A DNA stretch of 64,000 bases from a virus: positions 5,216 through 69,215 of the IMG/VR virus record IMGVR_UViG_3300033145_001255. One strand, 5' to 3'. How positions within the stretch are numbered: position 1 is the first letter of the stretch; the number at the start of each line of letters is the position of its first letter. The notes under the pieces are model-generated. The model saw nothing but the letters and a program-made list of their open reading frames with translations. It made no database searches and had not been told where the DNA came from. Below are positions 481 to 62,463 of this stretch, in pieces. Position numbers and translations under genes: made by a program.

Positions 481-518
481 TTCTGCTTTATTTTTTTTAT
501 ATTTAAATGATAAGCGCC
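437..518 (+). repeat. 82-bp exact direct repeat (copy at 23250-23331) containing a hairpin and T8 terminator-like tract
   Basis: Base-by-base comparison of TGGTAAGTACG...GATAAGCGCC. Confidence 0.9.
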
Positions 519-590
519 AATAGACCTTGGCTCGATTGGTGAGGGCGCAATCATACGCGCCCTGTCAACCAGTGCCATTGGCTCGGGCGC
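514..590 (+). repeat. Two copies of the ~35-bp GCGCC...TTGGnnn-GGGCGC element (514-548, 557-590)
   Basis: Same architecture at 23327, 45929, 56305 and 61811. Confidence 0.7.
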
Positions 591-708
591 GCAATAACAA
601 TAAAAAGATATCCACTAATATACTACTGTTCATAAACTCTGAAATGGCAGGGGTTGTTTTCGCTTCCTCACCGAAGTTTTTGCCCCTGCTTTTCTTATCA
701 CAAAAACA

Positions 709-725
709 GAACTTATAAATACTAC
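709..725 (+). promoter_or_regulatory. Archaeal TATA promoter (TTATAAATAC) for a leaderless portal mRNA
   Basis: About 30 nt upstream of ATG 746. The same TATAAATAC box precedes 23405 and occurs at ~31745. Confidence 0.65.
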
Positions 726-745
726 TAAACTATAAAGTTACTTCT

Positions 746-1990
746 ATGTCGTTATATTCCAGGTTTTCTCAGTTCGCGCGCAATTTCAGCAAGACTCAAC
801 CAAAGGCATTAATCACGTCAGGCCCGAACCTGAACGAGTTCTCAATGAGCGACCAGAAAAACGAACGGATATCAATGGAGGACCTAGAGAAATGGTATAT
901 CAAAAGCCCGCTGGTATTCTCGTCAATCAATATCTTCTCGGATATGTGTTTCGGTAAGGGCGGGTACTGCAAGTCTGACGACCCGGAAGCTGAGAAACTA
1001 TGCGAGCGCTCGGTACAGGTAACGAGTTTCAAGCCGACTACTATATCGTGTATCGGTCATACAATTCTATACGGTCAGGCATTCCAGGAGATACTGTGGT
1101 CGAACGAGGGCGAGGGCACAGAGATTGAAGGCTATGTACTAATGGACCCGAAGTCAATCGAGCCTAAGTGGGATAACCATGCGACCATACTCCGTTACGA
1201 GCAGAAGATTGAAGGCGCTATTGACCATGACAAAGCGCCTAAATGGATTATCTACGAAGAGAACGAGGACGGGACAGTGGGCGAGAAGAACCAGAACCCA
1301 TCTATGATATATTATCGGTTCTTTCGGATAGCAGACAACATGCGCGGTATCGGATTTGTCGAGCCGATTTTTCGGAAACTGGAAATATACGAAGATATCC
1401 TGTTATCTACTAAGGAGATATTCCACAAGTTCGCGTATCCGATGATGCATATAACCAGTAGTTCCGCAAAGTCTAAGTCGGAGATGGATAACTTGACGAA
1501 GATGTTCAGAGGATTCTGGCGCAAGTCATTCCACGCGACAGGCGAGTCTATCAAGTTTAATCTGCTGAGTGCAAACAGTAAGATCCCGCAGCTTAAAGGC
1601 GAGCGAGAGTCTATTCTGGACGAAATCATTACCGGCTTACGGATACCTAAGCCATTCTTATTAGGCAAGTCAGAATCTTCTGGCTTGGGCCAGGGTGATA
1701 TCAAAACTCTACGCGAGAATATAGCAACAGAAGTTTCAATGCTGCAACCGAAATTATCTCAGATAATCGAGGAACAGATTTTCAAGCCATTACTGGCGAA
1801 GAATGATATCAATGCAACTGTCAAGTGGAACTGGCATCCTGTCCGCGCTAAGGACGAGGCAGCTGAGATTGATATTACTATCAAGAAAATCAAGGAAATC
1901 TCAGACGCGAAGATGGCCGGGCTTATGACAGACGAGCAAGGGCAGGCAGCGTTCGATAAATACGTAGAGAACAAAAAAGACACGGTGTAA
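746..1990 (+). CDS. Portal protein
   Basis: 414 aa, first gene of the head block. Portal-like segments: LYGQAFQEI, MDPKSI, DNMRGIG..EP, ITGLRIPKPFLLG, IEEQIFKPLL. Confidence 0.85.
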   Translation: MSLYSRFSQFARNFSKTQPKALITSGPNLNEFSMSDQKNERISMEDLEKWYIKSPLVFSSINIFSDMCFGKGGYCKSDDPEAEKLCERSVQVTSFKPTTISCIGHTILYGQAFQEILWSNEGEGTEIEGYVLMDPKSIEPKWDNHATILRYEQKIEGAIDHDKAPKWIIYEENEDGTVGEKNQNPSMIYYRFFRIADNMRGIGFVEPIFRKLEIYEDILLSTKEIFHKFAYPMMHITSSSAKSKSEMDNLTKMFRGFWRKSFHATGESIKFNLLSANSKIPQLKGERESILDEIITGLRIPKPFLLGKSESSGLGQGDIKTLRENIATEVSMLQPKLSQIIEEQIFKPLLAKNDINATVKWNWHPVRAKDEAAEIDITIKKIKEISDAKMAGLMTDEQGQAAFDKYVENKKDTV

Positions 1991-1994
1991 AATC

Positions 1995-4919
1995 ATGACG
2001 ACCAAGACAAGAGGAATATACATTGAACCAGCACATGCAAAGCTTATACACAATAATAGCAAGAACCTTATCATCAAGGATAAATTCTTCAAGATAAACC
2101 AGGATGATATGGTATTGATTACAACCGAGAACGGGCAGGACAAGGCATTAGGCATGATAAGACTGCAACGGCCTGCATCTATCAACATTAAAGAGTTCAA
2201 GCAATACCGGAAATATCACAAAATTTCAGACGAGACCAGGCGCAGCCAGTGGCCGCACGCGCAGAAGCTATTCGCGTATAAGGTCAAGCAATACTGCGGG
2301 TTCCAGTCACCGAAAGACATAGACGTTATAGTGCATAACGATATTGTAAGTGATGTAAATCTATCTGCTAAGCGCAACATCAATATAAAGGTATCAGATT
2401 ACACGCCCGCCAATATCCCGGACGACAGGCTTAAGTCCGATTTCAGGCAGCTATGCGCTATCAGTACCCGCCGCCAGACAAGGTTTTCAAATGATGATAT
2501 CATACTGCTCGGCAGGAAGATAATGCCGGAGCTGATGAGGCGCGGCATAAAGTTCAATAAGACCGGCATGCAGCCTGCAACCTTAAAGTTAATCAACAAG
2601 ATTACCAACGATAAAGAGTTCAACATGAAATTCAACTTCAATGCCGACAAGCCGAAATCAGACGGCGAGAATTATTCAACTGCATTAAAGTACGACCTGT
2701 CAGACATCAAAGACATGGACGGGTTCAGGCAGATAGAACACGCGGAAACAACTGAGGGGCAAGACCAGCACACATACGACCTGTACTTCGCAGGTAACGA
2801 GTACTGGCTTGCAGATGATAGTATAATCAAATGGCGCAGTCTGAAAGACAGACCGCACGAGGCAGTCGAGGAATGGCACAGGATTACCGGGCTGAGGTTG
2901 AAGCTTGAAGATTGCGCGCAATACGACGCAGGCTATATCGTACACGACCCCGACAAGATATACGACAATGCATCAGCATACATCATATCCAACCCTGACG
3001 AGTGCGGGTTCCTCAAAGAAGCAAGTCCCATATCAATACCTGTCTTCGTCCCGGAAGACAAGGCAGACATTGTAAAGGACTGGCATCTCGAAGACCTGCG
3101 CGTCCTGAAGAAAGGCACAGCTCAGGAATACGAGGGCTATTCAATCAAGTGGACTGGCGACGAGGTAGAGATTATAGATATCAAGCCGGCAGCGAAGATT
3201 GAATCTGAGTTCTCCAAGTGCCGGATATTCACCAGGAGCACAATCGAGCTGGACTTCATCAAGCCCACCAAGCCATATCTCGATATGGACGCGCATGTAT
3301 CCAACGAGTTCTTCGTACTGGAAGACATGAAAGACTTTGACTACACGAACAAGACTCTTGAAAAGAAATACGACGGGCAGCGCCTGCAAATCCATAAGCG
3401 CGGTAACTCGGTCAAGTGCTATACTGCCTACGGCAACCAGATATCACTCAACAAGCTTGGTAATATCCCGAACGAAATCCGGGCAATAAACTCACATGCA
3501 TTCATACTGGACGGCGAGCTGATACTGCCGAACTTAGACCGTGATTACGTGCATGACGCGGTTACAACCGAAGGCTCGGACGAGTTGGAATACCGAGTAT
3601 TCGATATCCTGCAGGTAAATGATTCACGTTTGATAGATAAACCTCTATGCCAGCGCAGGCAAATCTTAGAGCGACTTCCACCTTCGTCGCATGTAAAGGT
3701 TTCGCCTGCGCTCAAAGTCACCAAGGACAATATCAAGGGCATGCTAAAGGAAATCCACAAGCGCGGCTACGAGGGCGCGGTCATCAAGGATACAAACTCT
3801 CTATACCAGGACAGGAAGGCATGGCATAAGTTTGTATTCATTACCAACTACCTGAAAAAGACAGAGGACATGCAGAACATGACAGAAGACGAGTCAAGGG
3901 ATTATAGGATTACACTTAATAGATTAGACCGCAAGCTGCGCGAGGGCAAGCGCATACCGATGGCAGTAACAGAACTATACGAGCAAAATACTATCATCCA
4001 GAATAATTCTGCCAAGCCGATAAGCGCGCCTAAGTTTACACTCACACGCAGGTTCTGCTGGTGGTATCACCCCAAGAAGAAGAAGCGCACCCGTAACAGT
4101 AAGGACTATCACCTTAAGATGGAATGCCCGTCTGCCTATAAGTTCCATCTCGATAAGAACCCGCAGACTGATACCGAGATAAGCGCTACTGCATTCACAG
4201 AAGGCGGTAAGTATTTCAGGCCCGGCGAATATCAGCCGGGAACAGACCTCAACCAAGACAATCAGGAATCAGTACATATCGAGAAGATATGCGAGGGCGG
4301 GTTCGACATGATCCAAGAAGAGCAGGACATGATGGAGATTAAGTTCAAGGGCAGGAAGTTCAATGGCACGTTCATCTTCAAGCGCAACGGCGAGACATGG
4401 ACCATGACGAAAGTCACCAAGAGCAAACAGCTAAGTAAATTACAGTTCGGGTTCAAGGATTTCAGGAACACCACAAGCCCCGTACTGGCGAATGATATCA
4501 AGTTCCCGTATAGACGCAGGACAATCGCATTCGCGCCCGGGTTCTGGCATCATACAGTATATACATGGGACATCATCAAGGAAGCGGCAATGAAGATGAA
4601 AGGAATACCAATGGTGATGGAACATTCAGACGAGATACTGGACGATTTGGGTACTGTTACTGACGTGTTCATCAACGAGCAAGACCAGCGCATCGAGGTC
4701 GAGTTCGAGTTGATAGACACTGTCAACGGCAAGGACGCGGCTATACTATTGGAGAACGGCAAGATACCTGCTGTCTCGGTCGCATTAGAGGAATGGAGTG
4801 ACGAGATAGACGGCAAGAACACATGCACGCAGATAGTCGGGTTCGGGCATGTAGCGCTGGTGAAATATCCCGAATGCGCGCCGGCACTGATATGCGACAA
4901 GGACGGGACTTGCGGTTAG
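1995..4919 (+). CDS. Multidomain protein: ASCH-like + ATP-dependent ligase adenylation domain + LigD-phosphoesterase-like + C-terminal prohead protease
   Basis: Ligase motifs EKKYDGQR, ILDGELI, YRVFDIL, EGAVIK, WHK. C-terminal APGFW..IPMVMEH..LGTV..PAVSV..HVALVKYP is typical of capsid maturation proteases. Lies between portal and scaffold/MCP. Confidence 0.8.
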   Translation: MTTKTRGIYIEPAHAKLIHNNSKNLIIKDKFFKINQDDMVLITTENGQDKALGMIRLQRPASINIKEFKQYRKYHKISDETRRSQWPHAQKLFAYKVKQYCGFQSPKDIDVIVHNDIVSDVNLSAKRNINIKVSDYTPANIPDDRLKSDFRQLCAISTRRQTRFSNDDIILLGRKIMPELMRRGIKFNKTGMQPATLKLINKITNDKEFNMKFNFNADKPKSDGENYSTALKYDLSDIKDMDGFRQIEHAETTEGQDQHTYDLYFAGNEYWLADDSIIKWRSLKDRPHEAVEEWHRITGLRLKLEDCAQYDAGYIVHDPDKIYDNASAYIISNPDECGFLKEASPISIPVFVPEDKADIVKDWHLEDLRVLKKGTAQEYEGYSIKWTGDEVEIIDIKPAAKIESEFSKCRIFTRSTIELDFIKPTKPYLDMDAHVSNEFFVLEDMKDFDYTNKTLEKKYDGQRLQIHKRGNSVKCYTAYGNQISLNKLGNIPNEIRAINSHAFILDGELILPNLDRDYVHDAVTTEGSDELEYRVFDILQVNDSRLIDKPLCQRRQILERLPPSSHVKVSPALKVTKDNIKGMLKEIHKRGYEGAVIKDTNSLYQDRKAWHKFVFITNYLKKTEDMQNMTEDESRDYRITLNRLDRKLREGKRIPMAVTELYEQNTIIQNNSAKPISAPKFTLTRRFCWWYHPKKKKRTRNSKDYHLKMECPSAYKFHLDKNPQTDTEISATAFTEGGKYFRPGEYQPGTDLNQDNQESVHIEKICEGGFDMIQEEQDMMEIKFKGRKFNGTFIFKRNGETWTMTKVTKSKQLSKLQFGFKDFRNTTSPVLANDIKFPYRRRTIAFAPGFWHHTVYTWDIIKEAAMKMKGIPMVMEHSDEILDDLGTVTDVFINEQDQRIEVEFELIDTVNGKDAAILLENGKIPAVSVALEEWSDEIDGKNTCTQIVGFGHVALVKYPECAPALICDKDGTCG

Positions 4920-4926
4920 AATAAAA

Positions 4927-6591
4927 ATGGGAGTGGTTGAAATGGCTATCAACAGGATTCTTGGCGGGGGATTGTTCGCGTTATTAGTAATTGCACTTAT
5001 TGCGCATGCAGTAGATTATCCTATGACGCCGAAGGCTAACATCGACATGCAAGACCATGAGATTCAGAATGTATCTACTATGTACGTTGACGTCCTGAAT
5101 GTCTCGAACTCTACCAACATGCCTATCAATTGGACGATGTTGCAGAACTTCCCGCCATGCTCGTCTACTGGCTATGCCATTACATGTCTTGGTGATTCGC
5201 TCACGTCTACTTATTTCGGGCTTGACGGCGCGACATTCATGGAGGACTTCAATGCGATGGGCTATTCACTTTTCAACTTGACCAACGTAACCGCTGATAT
5301 CCTGACTGACGGGACAATGCAATGCACGGGCGGGGATTGTATAGACATAGACGACTTGAACGCGACAGAATCATATCTGACAAGATTAGTCACATCATTC
5401 ATACAGCTATCAGGAATGTTTGAGACAGATGTTGATGTAGGTGGTAATAATATCGACAATGCAACAAACATTACCGTAACAGGCAACTTCAAAGTAAACG
5501 AATACATATTGAACTCGTCACACATACCAGACCATAACGGGCATAGTATATCTAAGACCTTCGAGCATATCATCAACCGCGGTAAGGCATCAGCTGTGAC
5601 AGTCGCGCTAACAGGCGGGCTCGGTATCAACTGGACAGCAGGCGAGATATACGACACATCAACAGATACATTCATAAAGACTACAGCAGGCAGCGGTAAT
5701 CTAAACGATAACGTAGTGAATTATCTTAAGTGGGTTAGCGGGACAGGACTTACAATTACTACTTCATCTTCTTCAAGCAATGAGATACAGATTGCCACAT
5801 TCTCAACTTATGCAGGGGTAATAAATACATTCAGGGAACATAGCCTCATAAGTGAATCTATTGCAGATACAAGACGCGGGTTAAGAATAGCATTTCCTAT
5901 TCGTATCATAAGCGGGATGGCAGTTACAGAAGATGCAAATGTTACTTACGACCTTGACGTTTCAATGAGCGCAGGCGAAGCAATCAAAGACGGTATAGAG
6001 AGGAAGACCCCGTCGGCGATTGATTCGAGGACAACCCCATTAATAAGGCATTTCCATACCGGCGGCGTGTGGGACTATGATACTAATGTAGAAATCAGCA
6101 CTACTCACTACGACGACGGGAATAATCTCGTAGCAATACCTGGCAATAAATGGGCTAAGGCATATTTCATATTCATGAACGGGAAGTTAGGATTTATATT
6201 CCCGAATGAGTATTTCAATAACGAAGCGCAAGCGCAGGACGCGGCATTGCCTGCAATCCCTCCCGGGCTAAGTTTAATCCCGAAACTGACTGCAATAGTA
6301 TATAAATCTAGTGTAAGCGATTTCAACGAAGTTACATGGCAGGATATCAGACCGGGCATAAGCGAGGAATCATTCAATATAGTTACAGACCACGGCGCAT
6401 TAGCAGGACTCGGTGACGACGACCATCCACAATATCTATTAGTTGACGGTACGCGCAACATGACAGGAACCCTAGTGATGTCAGATGCAGGCGCGCAGGT
6501 AAACACAACAATGATTTCTTCCGGCGGTAATGTCGGATGCTGCGGCATGAACGACGATTACTCGTTATCGTGTACTGCTGGCGCGTGCTAA
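4927..6591 (+). CDS. Signal-peptide-bearing fibre/adhesin-like protein, paralog of 26284-28596
   Basis: Hydrophobic N-terminus ending AHA, DHGALAGLGDDDHPQY fibre-type motif, many NxS/T sequons, N- and C-termini shared with 26284. Confidence 0.55.
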   Translation: MGVVEMAINRILGGGLFALLVIALIAHAVDYPMTPKANIDMQDHEIQNVSTMYVDVLNVSNSTNMPINWTMLQNFPPCSSTGYAITCLGDSLTSTYFGLDGATFMEDFNAMGYSLFNLTNVTADILTDGTMQCTGGDCIDIDDLNATESYLTRLVTSFIQLSGMFETDVDVGGNNIDNATNITVTGNFKVNEYILNSSHIPDHNGHSISKTFEHIINRGKASAVTVALTGGLGINWTAGEIYDTSTDTFIKTTAGSGNLNDNVVNYLKWVSGTGLTITTSSSSSNEIQIATFSTYAGVINTFREHSLISESIADTRRGLRIAFPIRIISGMAVTEDANVTYDLDVSMSAGEAIKDGIERKTPSAIDSRTTPLIRHFHTGGVWDYDTNVEISTTHYDDGNNLVAIPGNKWAKAYFIFMNGKLGFIFPNEYFNNEAQAQDAALPAIPPGLSLIPKLTAIVYKSSVSDFNEVTWQDIRPGISEESFNIVTDHGALAGLGDDDHPQYLLVDGTRNMTGTLVMSDAGAQVNTTMISSGGNVGCCGMNDDYSLSCTAGAC

Positions 6592-6622
6592 GCAATAGCT
6601 TTATTAACACGTTCCAACCTAT

Positions 6623-7240
6623 ATGCGCCGCATGACAAACCCAGACTTATTTGGAGATACAACCGACGGAGCCGCAGGTATTGCGGCTATGGCAGAAGCT
6701 ATAAAGGGAATCCAGAACTCAGTCTCAAAACTTGCTGAAAAAGTTGACGATATAACCAAGAAGAAAAAAGTCGACGACGAAGACTCCGAGCCAGGTCTTC
6801 CAGGCAAGATGCAGGCAGAGTTCGAGAAAACGATTTCCGAACAAAAAGAGAAACTCGAGCAGTTCGAGAAGGATCAGGAAGCGCTCAAAACCGAGCTAGG
6901 CACATTCCAGGCAAAAGAACATACAGAACATATTGCAGGCATTGTTGACGCTCAGTTCGAGAAAGGACTCATAACAGAAGACAAGAAAGTCGCAAGCGCT
7001 GAATCCCTAAAGGACTTCACGAAAGAACAGTTGACCGCGTTCGGTAAACAGATAGAACTCATGAACAGCGAGCCAACCAAGAGCAAGGCCTTCAAGCAAT
7101 CCGAGCCAGGCAGTGCAGGCGCAGCAGGCGCAGCAACAGACGCAGCCAAGCTCGAAGCCAAGAAGAAAGAGTTTAGCGCAATGGGACTCAAACCCGAGAC
7201 CGCTGAGTTAATGAAAGCAATGGAGGTCGAGGCCGTATGA
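6623..7240 (+). CDS. Capsid scaffolding protein
   Basis: Coiled-coil, charged and Ala-rich, upstream of cement and MCP. True start probably ATG 6632, ~30 nt after a TTTATTAA box. Confidence 0.65.
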   Translation: MRRMTNPDLFGDTTDGAAGIAAMAEAIKGIQNSVSKLAEKVDDITKKKKVDDEDSEPGLPGKMQAEFEKTISEQKEKLEQFEKDQEALKTELGTFQAKEHTEHIAGIVDAQFEKGLITEDKKVASAESLKDFTKEQLTAFGKQIELMNSEPTKSKAFKQSEPGSAGAAGAATDAAKLEAKKKEFSAMGLKPETAELMKAMEVEAV

Positions 7241-7659
7241 GTGAAGGACTAGTAATCGGATACCAGACAACTTCTGACACTGTGCCAATCAAAGTGAACA
7301 AGATAGTAGTCCGTAACTCGTCAGGCGATGTACTGGCGACAACTGTTGCAGCAGCAGATACACCTATAGTCGGTGTGACCCAGGGCGCGGTAGCGGCAAG
7401 GACAACAGCCTCTCAGAAGGACATACCTGTAAAGATGCAGGGCTTGGCGCGAGTACCGAAACCAACTGACTTGGCAATGAAAGTAGGATTCATTGTGACT
7501 ACAAACGGTACGACTACCGTTGGAACAGGTGACGGCTCGACTGTCATCATGGCAACAACAGCTACAACTCTCGGCGGCGGATACAACACGCTCGGCAGGG
7601 TAGCGAAAGATGCAGCGACAACAGACACGGAAGTTCTGATTGCGCTGAACATAAGATAA
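7237..7659 (+). CDS. Capsid cement/decoration protein
   Basis: 140 aa, Thr/Ala/Gly/Val-rich with IVGV..V.MQG..LGRV pattern, directly before MCP. Confidence 0.6.
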   Translation: MSEGLVIGYQTTSDTVPIKVNKIVVRNSSGDVLATTVAAADTPIVGVTQGAVAARTTASQKDIPVKMQGLARVPKPTDLAMKVGFIVTTNGTTTVGTGDGSTVIMATTATTLGGGYNTLGRVAKDAATTDTEVLIALNIR

Positions 7660-7666
7660 GGAGGAG

Positions 7667-8551
7667 ATGAAAATGTCAGACTACAATATTAAAAACTTCT
7701 CCGCTATCGTCGATACGTCACAGCTACCTACCAAATTATCGGAAGGCATTAAAGCTGCTGCAATCGAGAGATTGATGGAGGTAGTACTGCTTAGGAAACA
7801 TTTCTATGTAGACACAGGCACAATGGACGAGGGTTCAACCACCTTTACCTACAATGTGATGGACAGGTCTACAGCAGCTTACGACAGGGTACAGGGCACA
7901 GACGTCACACTCGATAACGAGGACGTGAGCGAGAGTTCCGTGACTGTCTCTGAGATTACGAAAGGATTCTCAATGTCATGGCCGGCAGACAATCTAAAGA
8001 AAATCAACCTGCGCGTCGCCAAGACAAAGGAATACGTCAATCTCGTCAAAGACCGCGAGGACTTGAAGATTGCGACTGCACTGATAGCATCAGGCGCGCT
8101 AACGTCAACTGTCTCCGCGAGCGCGGCACTGAGCGCGTCAGACGCCAACCCTATCAAGAACATCAAGGAAGCCAAGAGAAAGGTAAGAGCGCTGATGGGC
8201 GGCCAGAACCCGAACTTACTGTTAATCGAAGATGAGAATCTCGAAGAGCTTGCAGTCATTGTCGGGTCGAACGACTGGTACAAGATGACCGAAGAGTCAG
8301 TGCGCACAGGCGAACTGCCTACATTCATGGGCTTGAAGATTGTGGCACTACCAACAGGCAAACTCACACACGGAACAGCAGTTGTATGTATGGGCGGGCC
8401 TAACGGATGCTTGCATCTCGGTCAGGCGCATGATACTCGAATCAAGATATTCGACGACCCCAAGAAACACGCGACAGAAGTGCACGTGTACGAGCGCGTA
8501 GTACCGGCAGTTATCCGGGCCGATGCGGGAGCCAAAATCACAGGATGGTAA
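7667..8551 (+). CDS. Major capsid protein (HK97 fold)
   Basis: 294 aa, GGAGG RBS, REDLKI..AL, PNLLLI, GELPTFMGLKIV, C-terminal YERV.PAVIRADAGAKITG. Confidence 0.85.
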   Translation: MKMSDYNIKNFSAIVDTSQLPTKLSEGIKAAAIERLMEVVLLRKHFYVDTGTMDEGSTTFTYNVMDRSTAAYDRVQGTDVTLDNEDVSESSVTVSEITKGFSMSWPADNLKKINLRVAKTKEYVNLVKDREDLKIATALIASGALTSTVSASAALSASDANPIKNIKEAKRKVRALMGGQNPNLLLIEDENLEELAVIVGSNDWYKMTEESVRTGELPTFMGLKIVALPTGKLTHGTAVVCMGGPNGCLHLGQAHDTRIKIFDDPKKHATEVHVYERVVPAVIRADAGAKITGW

Positions 8552-8588
8552 GTTTGCCATCCCTGTATTTATACGGAAGTGATTATGA

Positions 8589-9059
8589 ATGCCACACGGA
8601 GGAATAACAACTAAGCGCAAGTTCGAGCGTCAGGCGCAGGATTCATCTCCTGAACTCGCGTCAGCGGCTATTGACCGCGACGAGGTAGAGGCAGAACTGC
8701 ATACCAGACGGATAATCGTCCAGCAGACAGCAGACTCTGTAACATCATACCTCGACCCGGTAGGATACCCGATAACCATAACGGAAGTCGGGCTGATAGG
8801 CAAGTCTGACACATCGCCGACAACCACCACAACCGCGTACCTGTCTGCCGACCTGAACCTGATCGACTCGAATCTCGTTGCCACAACCACAATACTGACA
8901 GCGCAGATATCAGCCACTACATCCAGCAAAATCTACAACGAGACAACAACAGGTGTTGCCCAGGCAGTAGCGGCAAACGAGCAGCTATCGGTTACATGGG
9001 ACGCGACAACGAACGTGGACGACGGGGCAAGCCTGTGCATCCAGTACACAGTAGACTAA
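8589..9059 (+). CDS. Putative virion structural protein
   Basis: Thr-rich beta-type sequence directly after MCP. Confidence 0.4.
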   Translation: MPHGGITTKRKFERQAQDSSPELASAAIDRDEVEAELHTRRIIVQQTADSVTSYLDPVGYPITITEVGLIGKSDTSPTTTTTAYLSADLNLIDSNLVATTTILTAQISATTSSKIYNETTTGVAQAVAANEQLSVTWDATTNVDDGASLCIQYTVD

Positions 9060-9083
9060 AACTATATAAACATGTAAGTCCAA

Positions 9084-9440
9084 GTGAACTGTATGCCAGT
9101 TATTAAGAGCTTGAAAGTGCGCGTATATTGCGGACCTAAATTTGAAAAGCTCTGGCTTAAGAAAGGAGAATCTATGATGATCCGGCCAGAGCAGATTTCT
9201 TTTTTTCAGAAACTTCTCGACAGCAACGACATGGTACTTCTCGATAAACCAAGCGCGCTTGAATTAAGTAATGACTCGACACTCGTCGAATCTGTTTCGC
9301 CAGCGCCCGTACATTGTCCTGTTGTGACAATGCATGAGATGGCGCCAGCCAAAAAAGAGAACAAACCCGTAACAGGCATCGAGCTTCCTAAAATTAACTT
9401 AAAAAAAAACAAATTCAAGCACAAGGGCAAGCGCAAGTGA
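9084..9440 (+). CDS. Hypothetical protein with basic C-terminus
   Basis: ORF with an upstream TATATAAA box. Confidence 0.4.
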   Translation: MNCMPVIKSLKVRVYCGPKFEKLWLKKGESMMIRPEQISFFQKLLDSNDMVLLDKPSALELSNDSTLVESVSPAPVHCPVVTMHEMAPAKKENKPVTGIELPKINLKKNKFKHKGKRK

Positions 9441-9603
9441 CCGAGCTTCCGTTCATGAAGATTCTTAATAAGTATGACGAGCTTAACTCTCGTTCTGAAT
9501 CGTGGCGCGTGTGGAATATCTCTACATTCTCGGATAAGGCGCGCCTATGTATTGGCATACTAAGAGAAAGATATATAAAGGTGTAAGTTTACTAGAGTTT
9601 ACT

Positions 9604-10218
9604 ATGGGAAACTTATTATATTCCGATTATGAAAGCATTGATTTCATGGGCGCAAACTGTACGTGTTCTAGCGGAACTATCAACAGGCGCTATAAAGACA
9701 TTGTTAAGCTAAGCGATAAAGAATGTATCGTCACACTTGACGGCAAGGATATTACTTCTCAGACAAGGATAGAAAATCATGACGTTGTATTCTTAGGCAC
9801 AGTGTTTAATCATGACTCGATAACTATTTATTATAAGGACAAGTGCAACAGACAAATCAAGTTCAATGCGTGGGACGAGAAGGGCAAGCGCATGATTCTA
9901 TGGGATGATATTGAAGCGATAGAGCGCGACCGGGTTTGGCTGCGCGGCTCTCAGCAGTTCACGGCTTTTGTCAAGCTGTTGCAGTTAATAGGACGAAAAG
10001 ATAAAGGTTCAAAAGAGATTTGTGAAGGCGACATTCTGGAATCTTCAAATGGACTAAAGTGTATTGTAATCTGGAATGATTATACATTATCATTTCTTGC
10101 TAAGTATCCATATCATAATGGATTTAGGCTCGATAATATTTTTGAGGATTATGATAAAGAGGATTATCTAATAATCGGAAACAGATACCAAGACAAGGAG
10201 AAGATGCATAATGAGTGA
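9604..10218 (+). CDS. Small beta-domain (like 25716/26020) fused to a YopX domain
   Basis: IKFNAWD..LLQLIGRKDKGSKEICEGDIL..IIGNRYQD is a YopX signature. TATATAAA ~30 nt upstream favours ATG 9604 over 9547. Confidence 0.7.
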   Translation: MGNLLYSDYESIDFMGANCTCSSGTINRRYKDIVKLSDKECIVTLDGKDITSQTRIENHDVVFLGTVFNHDSITIYYKDKCNRQIKFNAWDEKGKRMILWDDIEAIERDRVWLRGSQQFTAFVKLLQLIGRKDKGSKEICEGDILESSNGLKCIVIWNDYTLSFLAKYPYHNGFRLDNIFEDYDKEDYLIIGNRYQDKEKMHNE

Positions 10219-10705
10219 ACCGCTAGATATATTCAGAATTGAAGAAATATTACCTAAAGTAATTCGACATAAATTTCCAAATGATTCTAAGCTTATCCAG
10301 AATCACTTTGATATAGATTATAAAACGCGCAACGTAGGCGGCTTTAATAAATCGGATATTGTTATAAGCTACAACATAAAGCAAGTAGTGACATTAGACC
10401 CAGAGGTTATTATGGATGCGCGCAACAAACCCGCACTAATTCAATCTTTCATACTGAACAGTTTCGAGAAATTGATATACGAAATCAAGAGACAGATGTT
10501 ATTGACTGTAAAAAAAAGGTTCCAACTTAAACAGTTTTACGCGAGTTACAAGAGTACAGGACAGATGGATATTAAGTTTGTAGAAGATGTAACTGTTGAC
10601 GAAGGAGTGATTATAATTCACCCTGAAACACTAAACGAACTTAGAAGGAGTTCGCTTTACGGCGAGCAGATACTTGAAATTAAAAACGGAGAAGACCAGA
10701 AATGA
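10211..10705 (+). CDS. Hypothetical protein
   Basis: 164-aa ORF overlapping both neighbours. Confidence 0.5.
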   Translation: MSEPLDIFRIEEILPKVIRHKFPNDSKLIQNHFDIDYKTRNVGGFNKSDIVISYNIKQVVTLDPEVIMDARNKPALIQSFILNSFEKLIYEIKRQMLLTVKKRFQLKQFYASYKSTGQMDIKFVEDVTVDEGVIIIHPETLNELRRSSLYGEQILEIKNGEDQK

Positions 10706-10833
10706 AACCTCTTGACGGGCACATGAAATGCCAGAAGGATATGCTGTTCGTACTGGACAAGCTAAAAGTCCACCCGCGCGAGAGCAATAACTCGGCACTG
10801 TGCAGGCTGATGTTCGGGACTACGGAGTTGTAG
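10702..10833 (+). CDS. Small archaeal ribbon-helix-helix-like protein
   Basis: 43 aa, LDKLKVHPRES...LCRL motif, ATGA overlap with the upstream gene. Confidence 0.5.
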   Translation: MKPLDGHMKCQKDMLFVLDKLKVHPRESNNSALCRLMFGTTEL

Positions 10834-10934
10834 AATTATGATATCTTTGGATGAATGGGGATTTTTTGCAGCAGGGATGACGTTTGGTTTATCGGTCGCC
10901 GTAATCATACTGGATCCAGCCGGATTGCGAAGAA

Positions 10935-11366
10935 ATGGGGATTAATATGGATACAAGCGAGAAATATATCGAGATGTGCAAGCAAGCGAAAGAGATACAG
11001 GACTCTTGGAAAACTCACTGCGGGGATACTGTAACTTGTGACAATCCCAAAGATGGACGTATAGTAATTGTTATTACGGGTCAAAAGGATTTAGACAGAG
11101 ATTGCGAATTTCTTGATGTAATTTTTCCACATTCTTACGGACAAAATAGAGATTATAAAAGAAAAGACTTGATGGTATATCTACCACGCCAGGACCAACT
11201 GCAAGAAATGATTGGCGACTTCTCGACATGCTTACAGATTATGATTGATTTCCCGCCAGGAATATATATGGCTGACTCAGGCGAGCAATTATGGCTTAGT
11301 AAACTTATGGAAATCAAGTATCGGAAACTATGGGACGAGGGCAAGAGCGAGTGGGTGGATATCTGA
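10935..11366 (+). CDS. Hypothetical protein, paralog of 60572-61021
   Basis: Shared YI.MC..+KEIQ, P.QD.LQ.MI, E..WL...M and WD..W motifs. Confidence 0.65.
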   Translation: MGINMDTSEKYIEMCKQAKEIQDSWKTHCGDTVTCDNPKDGRIVIVITGQKDLDRDCEFLDVIFPHSYGQNRDYKRKDLMVYLPRQDQLQEMIGDFSTCLQIMIDFPPGIYMADSGEQLWLSKLMEIKYRKLWDEGKSEWVDI

Positions 11367-11624
11367 TGGAACTTATAGGTTGGACGTTAATCGAATGGGG
11401 TACATTCATTGTTACAATAGTAATTGGAATCATTTCGGCAAAAGTAATATTCGGAACTATGAACAAACTGAAGTTTGAAAATATAGCAGCTAAGTATTGG
11501 TTTATATTTAAAATCATAATGATAACCGCAATTTATTTCATTGTCATATTTTCGATAATGGTGGTAATAACGAGGTTTTTATTATGATGGACGAGGGCAA
11601 GAGCGAGTGGGTGGATATCTGATG
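11333..11624 (+). repeat. 36-bp exact direct repeat (11333-11368, 11589-11624) flanking a membrane-protein ORF (11366-11587)
   Basis: GGACGAGGGCAAGAGCGAGTGGGTGGATATCTGATG occurs twice. Confidence 0.9.
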
Positions 11625-11709
11625 TTTGATACTATATTGCAGGCAGTACTCGAAACCATTGGATTGATTATTGGAGTAGCTATGGGTATCGTTATAGCAA
11701 ATTGTATAA

Positions 11710-12825: not shown

Positions 12826-13488
12826 ATTCTAAAACTAAACTTACGATTGTAAATGATAAAGATGATGACCGCCGTCTAATAAGAATTGATATCGAACTAA
12901 AAGAAGATTTGAAAAAAGGATATCATCGGTTTGATATTGCTGATTGCATCAGTTTACGCGACGTTGAGTGCGGCCTGACTTATCTTGATTTAGTTCCAGA
13001 AGTAAAGAAGAAGAAACCTGCATGCGCTAAGGAGGCTGATGCGTTATGAATGAACTAAAGATATATTGCGTACTAATTCAACTTGGACTGACATATGTGA
13101 TAATTGGCATTTCCAAATGCATTTCTTCGCAGGGTGCATTTGTCCTAACAATCGCGACGATTGGAGTCATAGGAGGACTTATTGATATGGTAATTGATCG
13201 TTATTCAAATTGCAATATTTCACTTCTTACATGTTTATTTTGGCCGCTGACTCTAATATGGATTTTTTCAAGAATATCAGAAGATGAGGAGGCTGATTCG
13301 TTATGATATCTGAAATAATAACACTCGTATTATCTCTGCTGTTGGGCTTTGCCCTGCTCGGGATTGTAGTTGCCGTATGCGGGACAGTGTTTGTAATTAC
13401 GTTGATTTATTCGCTTAACATAATAGAGAATATTCTTGATTGGGTGAATGAGAAACTCGAAAAGAAGAAGGATAATGATGCGTTATGA
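12807..13488 (+). repeat. Four GGAGGCTGATGCGTTATGA-type gene-junction repeats joining ORFs 12822-13049, 13046-13306 and 13303-13488
   Basis: Copies at 12807, 13031, 13288 and ~13470. ORFs end EADAL/EADAL/EADSL/DNDAL. Confidence 0.8.
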
Positions 13489-16863: not shown

Positions 16864-16864
16864 C

Positions 16865-26278: not shown

Positions 26279-26283
26279 TACTT

Positions 26284-45616: not shown

Positions 45617-45619
45617 TGG

Positions 45620-54168: not shown

Positions 54169-56366
54169 AGATATATGGGAGAGTTATGCGGGCAAGACTA
54201 TAAACGCTAAGAACGATGTCTTTGAGATGATGAATCTCGCCCGTGCATCTGAACGCAAGCGCATCCGGGACGAGTGCAAGGAAAAACGATTTGAAGTTGA
54301 ACTGCCGGATAGCGACGGTTGGGTCAAGGTCGTCAACCCGGAAGATATTGACATGTGGAAAGATTAAATATAAGGAGTTGGTGAACGAATGACAGAAAAG
54401 AAAAACGGAATTACCGCGCTGTGCGAGGCGCTCGAGGAGTCAGGCAAGCTCGAGGAGATCCAGCAGTCTATGCGCGAGCAAAAGCTTGATAAGGAAATGC
54501 GAAGGTTGAGGAGGAGTTGTCGATGAACCGCGAACAGATACTCGACATGAAAGCAAAGATGGCAAAGCGCGGCAACTGGAAAGAGGTCCAGCGACTGAAC
54601 AAGATGTTGACGTGGTGTCCTAAATGAAAGACAAAACTAAATGCCCTAAAGATGCCGACGAAACAACTATACGTATGTGTAATGCTGTATTTCATGGTAA
54701 ACACTACGCCTGGGGGTGTACCCGCAAAGCAGGACATAAAGGCAAACATCACGCTCACGCGGCAGATGGCACATGCTGCAAGGTGTGGTAAGATGATACC
54801 TCCAATGATATGTTCTAAATGCGGAAAGGTAGAACCGTATTGCCTGTGCGCGGGCTTGTGCATCCACTGTTTTGTTGGTGGTTCATCATGAAACAATACT
54901 ACAAGCTAGGCGAGATATGCCCGGGGCTCGGCTCGTCGTGCGAGGGCAGGTGCAGATGGGATAAAGAGAAGCAAGCATTTGAATGCGCGCTTTTCAAGAA
55001 AACTAAGTAGAAGAGGTGATACAACTTGGATACAAGAGATGAAATCGAATTAAGCGAATGTATAGATCGTGAGACTATAAGAACAAAGAATACTATTATC
55101 ACCGCGATTAACAACTCTGAAAAGAGTATTGATAAAGACATCTTAGCTGAGCGAAAGAGAATAATACGGTTAATACGAAAATGTGAATGAATGCGCACTG
55201 TTCAAGCCAAAAGAGTTATCGCCTGATAGTATCCGCTTTGGGCGCGCGAAAAAATAGGAGTTGATGAATATGTCAAAACAAAACAATGATTTTCCAGAAT
55301 GGGAAGAATTAGATAAATTCATAATAAATGATCATAGACCAAAAAAGATGGAGAAGAAACTAATTGAAGCTGCTCGCAAATGGCTTCCTTACGCTTTAAA
55401 AGGACGTCATGGTACGGCTTCATATGGTGATTATTTATGGACTTTCTGTGTTAAATTAGAACAGGAAAGAATATGGAATTTTCCAGAGTTTTCACTTGGT
55501 ATGAAATATGGTATTACTTCAAGGAATCCAAGCAGAGATGCTAATCCTTATAATGAACGTTCACGACATCGAAGTTGGGATTGTGGATATATTCTGGGTT
55601 TAGAAAAAAAAAGGAGTTGATGAATATGGAAATATATACGAAAACAATAAGAGATAATCTCGGAATCGAGAGCCTGATGATATACGAGAAGGGCAGGATG
55701 GAAACGCCGCTGGTCGTGCTCGACTGGCTCGGGCTGAAAGATTTACTGGTAGAACTTCCCAATAATAAAATGCTTTCGACCATTAAGCAGTCTCGCCCTG
55801 CGGTAATCGAGGAATTGAAGAAGGAGATTGATTCCCTTGAATAAGAAAGTATTAATCCAGATTACGACTGGCGACTGTTACGATAAATCCGTAACAGACA
55901 AAGGCGGCAAGCCATTTACTTCCGTTGATTATGGCTGTCGTTTAGATGGTTGTGCAGGACAATATGGTGGCGCAAGCCCATGCAATAACGAGGAACAAGT
56001 CCAGCGAGCAGTCAAGAACGCGCGCGAAACAATCAATCAAGAAGGAGATATTGTTGTCTTTGAAGACCTGCGCGTCAGGCAGACGGGGTTGATGTGTTAT
56101 GCAAACTAAAACATATACAGAATATATGGTCTGTTCTTACGAGGGCGAGAATCATTTCGAGACAAGATATACAGAAGAACTCGATGATGTACCACGCGTT
56201 ATCAGATGCATGCAAGATGATTACAAATTGCGAAAACTATACCCGAATAGCTTTGTCTATAAGCTGTTTGAACGCAAGGTAACAAACTGGAAAAAGATTA
56301 ATCCGCGCCATTAGACCTCGGTTCAATTGGTGAGGGCGCGGGAAAATTCAAACCCGAATGTGAGAG

Positions 56367-56975
56367 CTAGACATTAGCCACGATACTGCGCGCTTGTTTC
56401 TCGATAATGAATATGTCCGAGTGGTCGTATGTGCTCAGGCTCGCCAGTGACGAGTGACCAGTTAATTTCTGGATGTCCTCGTATGGCATGCCGCGCGACT
56501 TGCAGTATGTAATAAAGAAGTGACGGAACGAGTGGCACATGACACATTTCTTTATGCCTGCCATCTTTGCGTACTTGGCTGGCAATCTTTGCAGGGCGCG
56601 GTATGACTTGCGCCTGAAGATATGATCTTCCGGCCCGAGCTTGTATTTCTTGATGTGCCTCTGTATCAATAGCATAGTGCCGGGGTCGAGGAACGCCAGC
56701 TTGCGCCTGTATGACCTGCGCTTCAAGATGAATGTCTCGAACGAGTTTGTATTGAAATCGAAGTCCTGTACTATCACGCCGTACTTCCATTTATGCTCGC
56801 GCTTGATATAGAGCCCGTATAGTTCGCCGAGCCTGCGCCCGCACTTGCGCAGTACTCTTAAGAACATATAGTCGAACGCGTCTGTTGCCCGGGCATGTTG
56901 CAGGATGGAGTCTATCTCTGCTCGGGTTAACGGGGTCGGGGCTTGCTTCGGCATGATAGTCACAACATCCGGCAT
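56367..56975 (-). CDS. Small catalytic-domain-only tyrosine recombinase
   Basis: CGRRLGEL, LKRR, CHSFRH, LTGHSS, TY.H. 202 aa. Confidence 0.9.
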   Translation of the reverse strand: MPDVVTIMPKQAPTPLTRAEIDSILQHARATDAFDYMFLRVLRKCGRRLGELYGLYIKREHKWKYGVIVQDFDFNTNSFETFILKRRSYRRKLAFLDPGTMLLIQRHIKKYKLGPEDHIFRRKSYRALQRLPAKYAKMAGIKKCVMCHSFRHFFITYCKSRGMPYEDIQKLTGHSSLASLSTYDHSDIFIIEKQARSIVANV

Positions 56976-59679: not shown

Positions 59680-59685
59680 GAACAG

Positions 59686-59916: not shown

Positions 59917-60065
59917 CTATATCGTATATTTAACATCGAAAAAAACGCGCGCCCAAACTTGGAACTTATCAGGCGATAACACTTCTTTGGATATCTAAGC
60001 GCGATTTCTTGTTTACATTACATTATGTACTTAACTTTAAATAGTTTACTTTACATTAAACAGGT

Positions 60066-60239
60066 ATGGTGCTAAAAAGAAATGGAGATAGTAAAGTTCC
60101 GTTGTCTGCCACGATAGATCCAGACGTCCGAGAATATCTTGAAGATAAGAGTGGAGATGAATCACTATCAAACTTAGTCAATAAAATACTTAAGGAAGCA
60201 ATGACATTAGACAAGCAAAGAGTACAGGAGGGAGATTAA
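60066..60239 (+). CDS. Ribbon-helix-helix regulator
   Basis: KVPLSATIDPDVREYL...SLSNLVNKILKEA. TTTAAATA box ~30 nt upstream. Divergent from the tRNA block. Confidence 0.7.
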   Translation: MVLKRNGDSKVPLSATIDPDVREYLEDKSGDESLSNLVNKILKEAMTLDKQRVQEGD

Positions 60240-60240
60240 A

Positions 60241-60582
60241 ATGGCAGACGCAAGCAAACTATTGAAGAACACATTCATGAGCTGGAAAGAGATTCCGACA
60301 CCGACAGTAGTTACAGTCATAGGCGCGGGCGGGTATTACCCTTCCAAGTTCAAGGACGAACAGCTGGCAGTAATCGTCAACTTCAAGGGCGTAGAGCGCA
60401 GATTGCCTATCAACGAATTTTCACTTAAAACAATTGCTATGGAAGTTGACTTTACAATGGAGACCAAGAACTGGGTCGGTAAGAGGTTGCAGTTGTCCAA
60501 GCGCAAGACTCAGCGCGGGGGCACGTTCACTATCAATGCCACACCATTCAAGAGACCGGAGATGAGGGCTATTGTCAGTTAA
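60241..60582 (+). CDS. Hypothetical protein, possible OB-fold SSB
   Basis: R.L.IN..S...IA....ET.NWVGK.L.L motif. Confidence 0.4.
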   Translation: MADASKLLKNTFMSWKEIPTPTVVTVIGAGGYYPSKFKDEQLAVIVNFKGVERRLPINEFSLKTIAMEVDFTMETKNWVGKRLQLSKRKTQRGGTFTINATPFKRPEMRAIVS

Positions 60583-61021
60583 TGAGAACGAGTACATTGC
60601 CATGTGCCTGGCGTCAAAGGAAATCCAGACCACCGGCAGGTTGCACGTAAGCTTCACAATACCGTATGAGTATGTCGGGCGCAGGTATTTCATTGATGGC
60701 CATGTAGTAACTATCATCCACGTAACCCCTCCCAAGATAAACTATACTTGTAATGGCTCGAATTATAGACTGTCGCGCCCTACATGGCATAAGCGCAATC
60801 CTAAATGGATCCCATCACAAGACGATTTACAGGGCATGATTGACAGGACAGCGCAGGTAACACTCGACAAGCTGGAAGATAGTTTCCCGCCTATCAAAAA
60901 GATAATGGTTGCATGGCGCAAGAAGTATCTACTCGGCAAGACAGACTGGCGCGAGGTATGGCTGAGATTGTATATGCATATAAACCATAACAAGACGTGG
61001 GACGGGAAGTGCTGGAAATGA
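60572..61021 (+). CDS. Hypothetical protein, paralog of 10935-11366
   Basis: Shared terminal motifs. Confidence 0.6.
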   Translation: MSVNENEYIAMCLASKEIQTTGRLHVSFTIPYEYVGRRYFIDGHVVTIIHVTPPKINYTCNGSNYRLSRPTWHKRNPKWIPSQDDLQGMIDRTAQVTLDKLEDSFPPIKKIMVAWRKKYLLGKTDWREVWLRLYMHINHNKTWDGKCWK

Positions 61022-61618
61022 AATGCGATTGCGCGGTAACAAGCACGTGTGTCCGGTATGCGAGAAGAAGAAAAAGGTGAAGAACTTATGAATGATGAAG
61101 ACATGCCTGATAATGTGCGACTGGCAGTTGAGCGAGACAAATTAATATATGGTGTCGGATATGCTGAAAAAAGCAGTGACGGGACATGGCGACACATACC
61201 TGCAAATACAATCATAATGAGTATGGCTAAACCCTGTAAGGTCAAACCAACGAATAAAGATATTGCAGAACTCACACAAGGACTTACGAATGTTATAAAA
61301 ATTATAGATGATTTCAATGCCAAAGATAAAGTTTAGTCACAGTTACCCCAAGTTGCACGGCCAGAAGCGCGCTAAGTTAATCCATGTGCGCAGGCTGGAA
61401 CAACCATTACACGAAGACCTGATAGAGTACGACACGCGCACAAGCACGGGCGAGTATTACGCGCTGCCGAAAGGGCTGTTGTTGCAGTTGATATTCGTGG
61501 GCGAGAAAGGGATTCCGTTCTGCACATTGCGCAGACATACTGCCAACAAGGAAGTGTACTACAGAGAATGTGAAGGTAAGGATTTCGAGGTTGTGATTAC
61601 TGATTATATAATACGGAG

Positions 61619-61801
61619 ATGACTGACATGACAGACAATGCAAGAGGAGAAGGACAAGGAGTAGGCGGCGCGCGCCAGGGCGACGGCGGGGCAAGTAAGT
61701 GCGTATGCCCTGACTGTGGCTGGGAAGGTCCGCACCTGCGAAACACGCCATGCGCTACGCAAGTATGCCCGAAATGCGGGACAAAACTGGTAGGGAAATA
61801 A
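61619..61801 (+). CDS. Small double zinc-ribbon protein
   Basis: Gly-rich start, CVCPDCG..H.R.TPC...CPKCG. Confidence 0.7.
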   Translation: MTDMTDNARGEGQGVGGARQGDGGASKCVCPDCGWEGPHLRNTPCATQVCPKCGTKLVGK

Positions 61802-62463
61802 TCCTACCTGGCGCCCAACTGACTCGGTGGAGTTGGTTCAGGGCGCAATCATCCTTAAAAAAACTAACAGGAGTTGATCTTATGGCAGACAGGACAAAGG
61901 ACTTTTCAATCGAGCAGGACATCAGGAAGAAAGAGTATATCAAGAAACACGGGCATGCAATACTCGAAGATATTGTAGGCGACGTGATAGTAAAGGATCC
62001 ATCCAAGATGAAGGTCGAGTTCAAGGACGGAACCAAAAAAACTATCCAGGAACTGTGCGCGCTAAACGAGCAAGTCACCAAGCTGCGCAAGTCAGGCATC
62101 AAGGACATGCTATTGGGATTGTTGGGTGTCAAGCAATAACTTATGTAAAGGTATTTAGAATGGAAATAGAAAAAGATATTGACCCTGAACTATGGATGAA
62201 CAAACCTCATTCGGCCACATTACTTAGAGAGAAAATCGCATATAAAATCGCCGATATGAAAGAGTTATACATAAAAAGCAGATTACGATATCCATTCTAC
62301 ATAATGCCATTCGCAAGGATTGCCGCTAAGTTTATTTTCGTTGTTGAAAAAAGACCAACACATTTTATTGGAGTTGGTATTGAAAAGAAAATTAGTATCG
62401 ACATTAATGTTATCGGCAATCCGCGCTACCCAAAATGGGTAAGTAAAATATTCATACGAGAGG

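Follow-up and report, generated by a model that had tools for sequence, protein, structure and literature searches.

Six GC-clamped repeats at module junctions of a viral genome form a small, graded family and may act as RNA stem-loops

The stretch of DNA studied here, hereafter the window, comprises 64,000 nucleotides of IMG/VR virus record IMGVR_UViG_3300033145_001255 (bases 5216-69215 of a 69,215-bp record with a 114-bp terminal repeat), whose source is an uncultured, tailed and probably temperate phage. Gene limits were taken from open reading frame (ORF) lists and a crude ORF caller, and most genes are carried by the plus strand. The portal gene (746-1990), which has no Shine-Dalgarno sequence, the major capsid gene (7667-8551) and the tail tube gene (33713-34714) were recognized, as were two integrase-family genes on the minus strand, one encoding a protein of 328 amino acids (28746-29732) and the other a tyrosine recombinase of 202 amino acids (56367-56975), and one tRNA gene, for tRNA-Thr. 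Six short repeats with GC-rich ends, here named S1 to S6, are spread along this genome in a single orientation and are the subject of this work. Their description as a family is partly confirmed by our results: the sites are real, and they constitute a small, graded family within a larger set of hairpins bearing a common word and within a duplicated regulatory cassette.

All six strings claimed in a sequence-only reading of this DNA were found at their coordinates, and all on one strand, the plus strand. S1 (514-548), S3 (23327-23361) and S5 (56303-56341, core 56305-56339) are canonical; S1 reads GCGCC-AAT-AGACCTTGGCTCGATTGGTGAG-GGCGC, S3 is its paralogue and ends 11 nt before TATAAATA, and S5 has a 7-bp clamp. 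S2 (557-590), located 8 nt after S1 and with it upstream of the portal gene, and S4 (45929-45961; CGCCC...TTGGCTCGGGCG) are weak look-alikes, and S6 (61811-61846), which contains GGAGTTGGT, forms a strong hairpin of 15 pairs including two G-U. The sites are 33-36 nt long, with arms of 5-7 bp placed 21-25 nt apart; the arms of S6 are longer, but enclose a 4-nt centre and include a 2-nt bulge and two G-T mismatches. Blocks constant among the sites are GCGCC, GAC[C/T]T, TTGG... and GGGCGC.

The pattern GCGCCN{18,30}GGGCG occurs 9 times in comparison with 0.67 +/- 0.88 in dinucleotide shuffles, none of 100 reaching 9. Seven of the nine matches are on the plus strand, namely S1, S2, S3, S5 and S6 plus two coding look-alikes without TTGG words, at 15967 and 16576; the remaining two are minus-strand readings of the palindromic S2 and S6. 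As S4 starts with CGCCC, it was caught only by a looser CGCC...GGGCG scan, whose 8 plus-strand matches are the six sites and the same two look-alikes. The GC clamp by itself is weak evidence, because the genome is rich in GCGC, with 614 occurrences in comparison with 170 expected from base composition. CGCG is likewise frequent throughout the genome (420 versus the same expectation) and GGCC is found only 45 times, a scarcity that suggests avoidance of a restriction system cutting GGCC.

In single-sequence nhmmer searches, S1, S3 and S5 matched one another significantly (E 3.6e-5 to 7.6e-4), and a model built from S1, S3, S5 and S6 ranked S4 first (E 0.6) and S2 second (E 1.6) among the untrained matches in 138 kb, both strands included. 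S6 resembles S1, S3 and S5 through this trained model alone, its best single-sequence match being S4 (E 1.8). The proposal of a family of six therefore holds for S1, S3 and S5, which are alike, but S2, S4 and S6 are weak look-alikes, and the six are neither equal nor independent copies. Indeed, S1 and S3 are both contained in a 113-nt direct repeat of the plus strand (437-549 and 23250-23362), so that the sites amount to five loci.

The first copy of this repeat runs from the end of an ORF of 38 amino acids through a weak hairpin, TTTATTTTTTTT and a spacer to S1, and the second ends with S3. The two copies differ only at three adjacent bases inside the site (519-521, AAT versus TTA), and their identity stops exactly one base after it. 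The repeat is part of a larger duplicated cassette formed, in order, by a leader element, the 38-amino acid ORF (364-480, with a paralogue of 68% identity at 23177-23293, both on the plus strand), the weak hairpin, whose loop contains the stop codon, TTTATTTTTTTT, the S site, TATAAATA and an ATG. At the end of the cassette, TATAAATA is found exactly 24 nt before the ATGs of the portal gene and of gene 23405, both devoid of a Shine-Dalgarno sequence. This arrangement of TATAAATA and ATG at 24 nt is present three times in total (714-746, 23373-23405 and 31744-31778), the third ATG opening a frame of only 23 codons. TATAAATA equals the T4 late-promoter consensus and also resembles an archaeal TATA box with leaderless starts.

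The leader element of the cassette, also on the plus strand, is a three-helix RNA at 60-199 (L1), whose second hairpin (139-173) has the loop TTGGCTCGGTCTGGTTCAG, and its paralogue at 22995-23135 (L2) has the loop TTGGTTCAGTCTGGTGAAG in the corresponding hairpin (23075-23109). With a Y shape of about 100 nt and 40 predicted pairs, 6 of which are compensatory and none broken between the two paralogues, the leader element is a covarying RNA structure. Both copies are placed upstream of late-gene blocks, and CGGTCTG is found in two of the loops of the element. No third copy was detected in the genome, and the element had no match in Rfam. At the Rfam gathering threshold, only the tRNA-Thr passed in the window; at E<=5, region 1-800 gave one chance-level C/D-box match (sR32, 11.8 bits versus a threshold of 40, E 2) and region 45550-46260 gave none.

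Directly 5' of the 3' arm, the sites share a word, T[T/G]GG[Y]TC[R]G or TTGGTGA[A/G]G, which is also present in at least four more plus-strand hairpins and in the two leader hairpins, on other stems. Two of these additional hairpins are S-like: one at 45731-45770, with the stem GTTACGC, three G-U pairs and TGGGTCGG at the 3' arm (hidden Markov model E 4.2), folds at -17.2 kcal (z -5.2, with 0 of 200 shuffles as good; -16.0 on the plus and -9.8 on the minus strand), and another at 49243-49280, composed of CTGACTC and TATGAAGTTGG, is preceded by a terminator-like hairpin and continues into the ribosome-binding site of gene 49293. The hairpin at 46091-46121 (GCGGTCT...TTGGTTC/AGACTGC) folds weakly (-8.9 kcal, z -1.25), and that at 46140-46177 (GGCTAGC...TGGGCTCGG/GCTAGC) folds at -18.3 kcal (z -3.96). 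The wider set is thus made up of at least 12 plus-strand stem-loops in non-coding gaps, the six sites included, and at least six different stems carry the word (GCGCC(C), CGCCC, GTTACGC, GGCTAGC, GCGGTCT, AAATTCCA and AAAATCAT). TKGGYTCRG has 9 matches versus 2.46 +/- 1.41 in shuffles, with 0 of 100 reaching 9; eight of the nine are on the plus strand, and seven of these eight are inside non-coding elements. Similarly, TTGGYTCR has 15 matches versus 7.32 +/- 2.61, and 8 of its 9 plus-strand matches are inside elements. Both tests are partly circular, because the patterns were written after the sites had been seen.

The word recurs, in a related form, next to start codons. The motif [A/T]GGAGTTG[G/A]TGAA[C/T] precedes the ATG or GTG of about 12 small early genes by 0-2 nt (47087, 48875, 49752, 51407, 52810, 52940 and 54374, with variants at 231, 53858, 55258 and 55614), and GGAG[G/A]TGAT is found before many other genes. 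In our reading, this motif is an extended Shine-Dalgarno sequence, GGAGuUG[G/A]U, whose G/A position would face a U in the 3' end of 16S rRNA, ...AUCACCUCC. The observation that the words occur in the leader-hairpin loop and resemble a viral Shine-Dalgarno motif proved sound, since both leader hairpins hold them and GGAGTTG[G/A]TGAA recurs at these starts; the extended Shine-Dalgarno reading accounts for the likeness of the TTGGTGA word to that motif.

Regarding placement, the sites had been described as lying at or between gene ends, and this is largely so: S1 to S4 are outside ORFs of at least 60 amino acids, S5 holds a stop codon and S6 is between plus-strand ORFs, but the crude caller instead places a weak minus-strand ORF over S6. 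S1/S2 and S3 are found after the weak, terminator-like hairpin with TTTATTTTTTTT and before TATAAATA, at a distance from it of 11 nt for S3 and 165 nt for S1. Between the tail genes and a block of small genes including ArdC-N/M78 and RadC is a 585-nt gap that lacks a convincing ORF and is occupied by S4 together with three more hairpins. S5 contains the TAG stop of ORF 56099-56314, at the point where two convergent operons meet, and its core ends 27 nt from the stop of the 202-amino acid recombinase, the distance given in the sequence-only reading. S6 occupies an 80-nt gap between plus-strand ORFs 61619-61801 and 61882-62139, 9 nt after the stop and 35 nt before the ATG; S6 and the 49243 hairpin are 24 and 0 nt before ribosome-binding motifs, respectively. 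Not all junctions are marked in this way: the convergent one at 28.6 kb has no S-like site, and neither does the third TATAAATA (31744). Judged by gene order and motifs, these junctions would be boundaries of transcription units.

Other elements were also noted. A regulatory region of about 45 nt with TTATCGCCTGATA and TTTGGGCGCGCG is present in inverted copies (55211-55248 and 59946-59984) that head the convergent operons meeting at S5, and the 4.7 kb between these copies contain the small recombinase and the tRNA. Five AT-rich palindromic cassettes (46630, 48145, 48835, 49698 and 51357), each with a T-run, a centre resembling AGACTGGGTAG, an A-run and TAAAT, are placed between early genes and could be promoter/terminator cassettes. 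Near S1/S2, the best terminator-like site is a hairpin with CTTTTCTT at 648-700; its loop, CCTCACC, is the exact complement of GGTGAGG in S1, 130 nt upstream, which may reflect an alternative pairing or chance.

The plus strand folds better than the minus strand in all 12 elements, and by at least 2.4 kcal/mol in 11 of them, versus 59% and 27%, respectively, of 70 control 36-nt windows with a 5-bp clamp. For the reported sites, counted as five independent loci, 4 of 5 pass the 2.4 threshold (p ~0.02 by our own binomial estimate). S1 (-11.1 kcal on the plus strand, -8.7 on the minus) and S3 (-12.5 kcal/mol) are weak hairpins, S6 reaches -22.2 on the plus and -16.3 on the minus strand, and S1 and S2 together can form a 77-nt composite hairpin (-37.8 kcal, z -3.4). 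Hairpins as such are common in this genome, in which 325 clusters of 44-nt windows, counted on both strands, reach a folding energy of -14 or better. It is thus the sequence on the hairpin scaffold, and not stability, that is conserved, which points to recognition by a factor. As a structural lead only, S1, S3 and S5 read GCGCC-N-NNA-GA-CC...GG-U-GA-GGGCGC, a kink-turn-like pattern in which the variable bases 519-521 correspond to the would-be bulge. A kink-turn comprises a C-stem, a 3-nt bulge and tandem sheared G-A pairs; here the pair beside the bulge would be A-G or U-G, both non-canonical, and S2, S4 and S6 are without the pattern.

Among the roles previously proposed for the sites, those of an RNA hairpin and of a decoy for a protein binding the leader motif fit best with the word beside the 3' arm of at least six stems, the covarying leader and the better folding of 12 of 12 elements on the plus strand. 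We tentatively favour, as somewhat short of an even chance, the interpretation that the sites are cis-acting RNA stem-loops that present one word to a trans-acting factor at module junctions; we infer that they are transcribed, act as RNA, bind this factor and have an effect on the adjoining modules. According to this model, a single factor would recognise U[U/G]GG[Y]UC[R]G or UUGGUGA[A/G]G on a hairpin scaffold and would control passage at the junction, by acting on read-through or processing, on how stable the flanking messages are, or on the translation of the next gene. The favoured candidate is an RNA-binding protein encoded by the phage, with the 3' end of 16S rRNA as the alternative reader of the hairpin word. 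As the minus-strand tail of S5 has 8 T in 12, this site may in addition end the minus-strand recombinase operon. If one factor reads the word in all three of its settings, namely the ribosome-binding motif, the junction hairpins and the covarying leader RNA, the outcome would be a compact and testable model of how a temperate phage without its own sigma or Q times its modules, which would also show how such cassettes promote module exchange.

Several observations weigh against the stem-loop interpretation. No RNA-binding protein was identified among 78 phage ORF products in nine family searches. S2, S4 and S6 find their best non-self matches only among themselves in single-sequence nhmmer searches (E 1.8-11), and the family may be heterogeneous, these three not being significantly like S1, S3 and S5. 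Four of the 12 elements were chosen by a script allowing plus-strand G-T pairs, which weakens the folding bias, and the test for a stem beside the word is lenient, as 43% of control-motif matches pass it too. For S3 and S4 in their context, folding did not surpass that of shuffled sequence (z -0.82 and 0.04). Being constant in sequence, the clamp of the six sites offers no covariation, and such constancy would suit DNA recognition just as well. In our reading of the model alignment, S1 does not retain the inner helix of S6, and no common fold exists beyond the clamp. Lastly, in S6 and in the 45731 hairpin the word is paired rather than displayed.

The first alternative, unlikely but deserving consideration, is that the sites are bound as DNA by a phage regulator, as operators, activator sites or stoperator-like roadblocks at module entrances, for example in a lysogen. 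The blocks GCGCC, GAC[C/T]T, TTGG... and GGGCGC are constant without covariation, the clamp halves are about 30 bp apart, roughly three helical turns by our own arithmetic, the sites are co-oriented with transcription at module entrances, and the distance of 11 nt from the end of S3 to TATAAATA is where an activator would be expected for a promoter lacking a -35 box; besides, the phage is probably temperate, with two integrase-family genes. However, the wider set varies its stems and keeps its loop word, the opposite of a dyad operator, and G-T pairs make the hairpins specific to one strand. Neither is the spacing to TATAAATA kept (11 nt and 165 nt, with no site at 31744), and a different, clearly palindromic operator-like repeat, TTATCGCCTGATA, is present at 55211 and 59967.

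A second alternative that we regard as unlikely is repeat DNA without a dedicated function, whether similar to repetitive extragenic palindromes (REPs), miniature inverted-repeat transposable elements or GC clusters, or leftover junctions, acting at most as exchange points in the manner of promoter(early) stem-loops (PeSLs). Such an origin would be consistent with the end of the 113-nt cassette identity at the 3' end of the site, with the graded, modular web of partial likeness among the copies, and with the flanks of S1, whose left side is common with S3 and whose right-flank hexamer, AATCAT, is common with S6, suggesting flank shuffling; the genome is, moreover, rich in GCGC palindromic words and in hairpins (the 325 clusters). 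Conversely, a Y1 or REP-associated tyrosine transposase (RAYT) is not encoded in the phage, the flanks have no visible target-site duplications, and the copies number only about a dozen, with uniform orientation and with the word embedded in a covarying leader RNA and beside ribosome-binding sites. If the repeats were junction scars only, they would still mark where this lineage recombines.

An extended form of the stem-loop interpretation, of which we are doubtful, is a small RNA regulon in which hairpin-borne U[U/G]GG[Y]UC[R]G is recognised by a protein encoded by the phage at the leader, at the S hairpins and at 45.7-46.2 kb. The duplicated Y-shaped leader would then be a read-through device of the put/nut type before the two late-gene blocks, the S hairpins would gate the module junctions, the stretch with four hairpins at 45.7-46.2 kb would yield a decoy or sponge RNA, and the likeness of the word to the extended Shine-Dalgarno sequence would couple this control to the translation of early genes.

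That the sites are terminators or insulators in their own right, possibly bidirectional, seems improbable. They are found at module junctions, and T-rich tails occur on the minus strand of three of them (8 T in 12 for S5, which is 27 nt after the recombinase stop, and 6 in 12 for S1 and S3); a consensus scan also lists the minus-strand reading of part of S1 as terminator-like. On the plus strand, though, none of the six sites has a T-rich tail (1-4 T in 12), no minus-strand genes are available to be ended upstream of S1 and S3, and these two sites are already preceded by a hairpin with T8. In addition, the terminator-like class is near background (22 versus 16.0 +/- 3.5 and 18 versus 15.7 +/- 4.3), and termination would leave the conserved loop word unexplained.

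Recombination by the small tyrosine recombinase or by the 328-amino acid integrase, including the folded single-strand attC kind, was among the roles suggested at the outset and fits poorly, to the point of being very improbable: S5 is 27 nt from the recombinase stop, the cassette homology breaks at the site edge and S6 has GCCCAAC ... GTT(CA)GGGC, similar to the R''/R' boxes of attC, but a core site has two inverted arms of 9-13 bp around a 6-8 bp spacer (here, 5-7 bp and 21-25 nt), attC sites span 57-141 nt with boxes RYYYAAC and GTTRRRY and an IntI-type integrase (here, 33-36 nt, similar words in S6 only and a recombinase scoring 42 bits against an integron-integrase model cut-off of 265), only one of the five loci is near a recombinase gene and none near the 328-amino acid integrase (28746-29732), active sites in one orientation would delete essential genes (e.g., 22.8 kb from S1 to S3), and contigs matching 1-20000, in fragmentary coverage, show joints at 10831/10946 and 16121/16207, neither at S1/S2. 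No RNA run containing the sequence was found; these contigs come from one DNA run with 7% of the sampled words, in short pieces, none informative at S1/S2.

Other candidate readings were tried and rejected. The words recall the D-loops and T-loops of tRNA, and a tRNA model gives nothing at E<=5. As coding sequence (...DLGSIGEG...), the three core bases that differ between S1 and S5 would be silent changes, but in-frame stops, directly before this frame at S1, S3, S4 and S5 and inside it at S3, block the reading. A frameshift at S5, where AAAAAG is found 6 nt before the hairpin, would lead to a -1 frame that stops at once.

Searches for relatives returned little. Phage records, searched by megablast with 1-8000, by tblastn with the portal and by blastn with 50-720, gave no match or chance matches only (E>=0.06); the portal protein and a 4-sequence portal alignment found nothing in viral, metagenome or genome contigs, and only 3 portal homologues were present among 5.8 billion proteins. 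The small-ORF alignment and exact DNA patterns of the S sites and the leader core likewise had no match in viral contigs. Matches to TYGGYTCRATTGGTGAGGGCG were obtained at 5 metagenome and 3 genome-contig loci, all without the GCGCC arm; we regard them as chance look-alikes, because they lack this arm and read, in our own translation, as coding ...GSIGEG....

The gene content displays mixed affinities. Bacterial-type genes are present (RadC, ArdC-N, DUF6908 and RGP neighbours), together with archaeal-looking traits, namely TATAAATA exactly 24 nt before ATGs without a Shine-Dalgarno sequence and best recombinase matches to XerA_Arch, far below the cut-off. The large terminase subunit, encoded outside the window (L009, 1513-3213), contains an intein, recognized by matches to Intein_splicing and Hint over residues 399-540. 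Directly after the portal gene, a protein of 974 amino acids (1995-4919) has an ATP-dependent DNA ligase adenylation domain at residues 443-612, an unusual position for this domain. A block of sugar and nucleotide enzymes (15802-20210), including an RGP-like glycosyltransferase, a nucleotide-sugar dehydrogenase-like protein and a DHH phosphoesterase, may serve the modification of DNA or surface sugars. Two proteins of 554 and 770 amino acids are alike only in their first ~120 residues (4927-5298 and 26272-26607), a pattern to be expected of fibre or spike proteins that are interchangeable and share an adaptor.

Few parts of phage genomes are as poorly understood as repeated intergenic signals; the start-associated sequences (SAS) with their extended form (ESAS), PeSLs and stoperators each needed years to be recognized, some remaining without a mechanism. 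The S sites were set beside these and other systems. Tandem interspaced guide RNA (TIGR)-Tas arrays, compared by description, do not fit: the Nop domain PF01798 had no match at E<=1, and, in our reading, the spacing of box C (CCA) and box D (UG) around two 8-12 nt spacers does not suit S1 to S6 on either strand, only S1 and S2 being in tandem. REPs and the bacterial interspersed mosaic elements that they form in enterobacteria and pseudomonads are extragenic imperfect palindromes with a conserved head tetranucleotide, and can stabilise upstream mRNA. The S sites are similar to them as GC-rich imperfect palindromes of about 35 nt, extragenic, after stops and sometimes paired (here S1 and S2), and differ in belonging to a phage and in having six to twelve copies; in our reading, the flanks show no shared tetranucleotide outside the clamp, and, to our knowledge, REPs have no conserved loop word. 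The RAYT family PF01797 had no match at E<=1 in the 69-kb record, although a host RAYT is possible.

The presentation of a conserved single-stranded word on hairpins with variable stems is shared with lambda boxB/nut, HK022 put and CsrB/RsmZ. The resemblance extends, for HK022 put, to a structured leader RNA present twice ahead of terminators and, for CsrB-type decoys, to a cluster of four hairpins in a non-coding stretch (here 45.7-46.2 kb). The S sites have no sequence or family relation to any of these systems, and genes for N, Q and sigma were not found in family searches. With the stoperators of mycobacteriophage L5, the S sites have in common an asymmetric form, one orientation relative to transcription and a location in short gaps near stops and starts throughout the genome of a temperate phage; stoperators, in contrast, are 13 bp long, exist in 20-30 copies, lack the potential to form hairpins and function as duplex DNA to which the repressor binds. 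Stoperators are also mentioned in the report on Cluster K mycobacteriophages (PMC3203893).

PeSLs of T4-like phages are short repeated intergenic cassettes combining an early promoter and a terminator stem-loop (PMC4122927). They lie where unrelated gene blocks meet, and in this respect they may recall our cassette, whose identity ends one base after the site, in one case and one genome. They differ in their promoter, since no plus-strand sigma-70-like match falls on any S site, the only overlap being on the minus strand (578-550).

SAS of Cluster K mycobacteriophages are asymmetric motifs with AGGAG at 3-7 bp before starts, with the sequence GGGATAGGAGCCC, and ESAS are 17-bp imperfect inverted repeats with a 4-13 bp spacer that always adjoin a SAS (PMC3203893). 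Like the S sites, both are repeats in one orientation confined to the phage genome, and a stop codon can fall inside the repeat (PMC3203893). The GGAGTTG[G/A]TGAA motif of about 12 genes is comparable to SAS as an AGGAG-type motif shortly before starts, an analogue only, since its sequence differs from GGGATAGGAGCCC; likewise, S6, with 24 nt between it and such a motif, and the 49243 hairpin, with 0 nt, are comparable to ESAS as imperfect inverted repeats upstream of some of these starts. The differences are the absence of sequence likeness, the position of S1 to S5, which do not adjoin a ribosome-binding motif, and a portal gene without a Shine-Dalgarno sequence. By sequence or by the defining features compared here, and from ESAS by description, the S sites are distinct from SAS/ESAS, PeSLs, REPs and stoperators, and belong to none of these groups.

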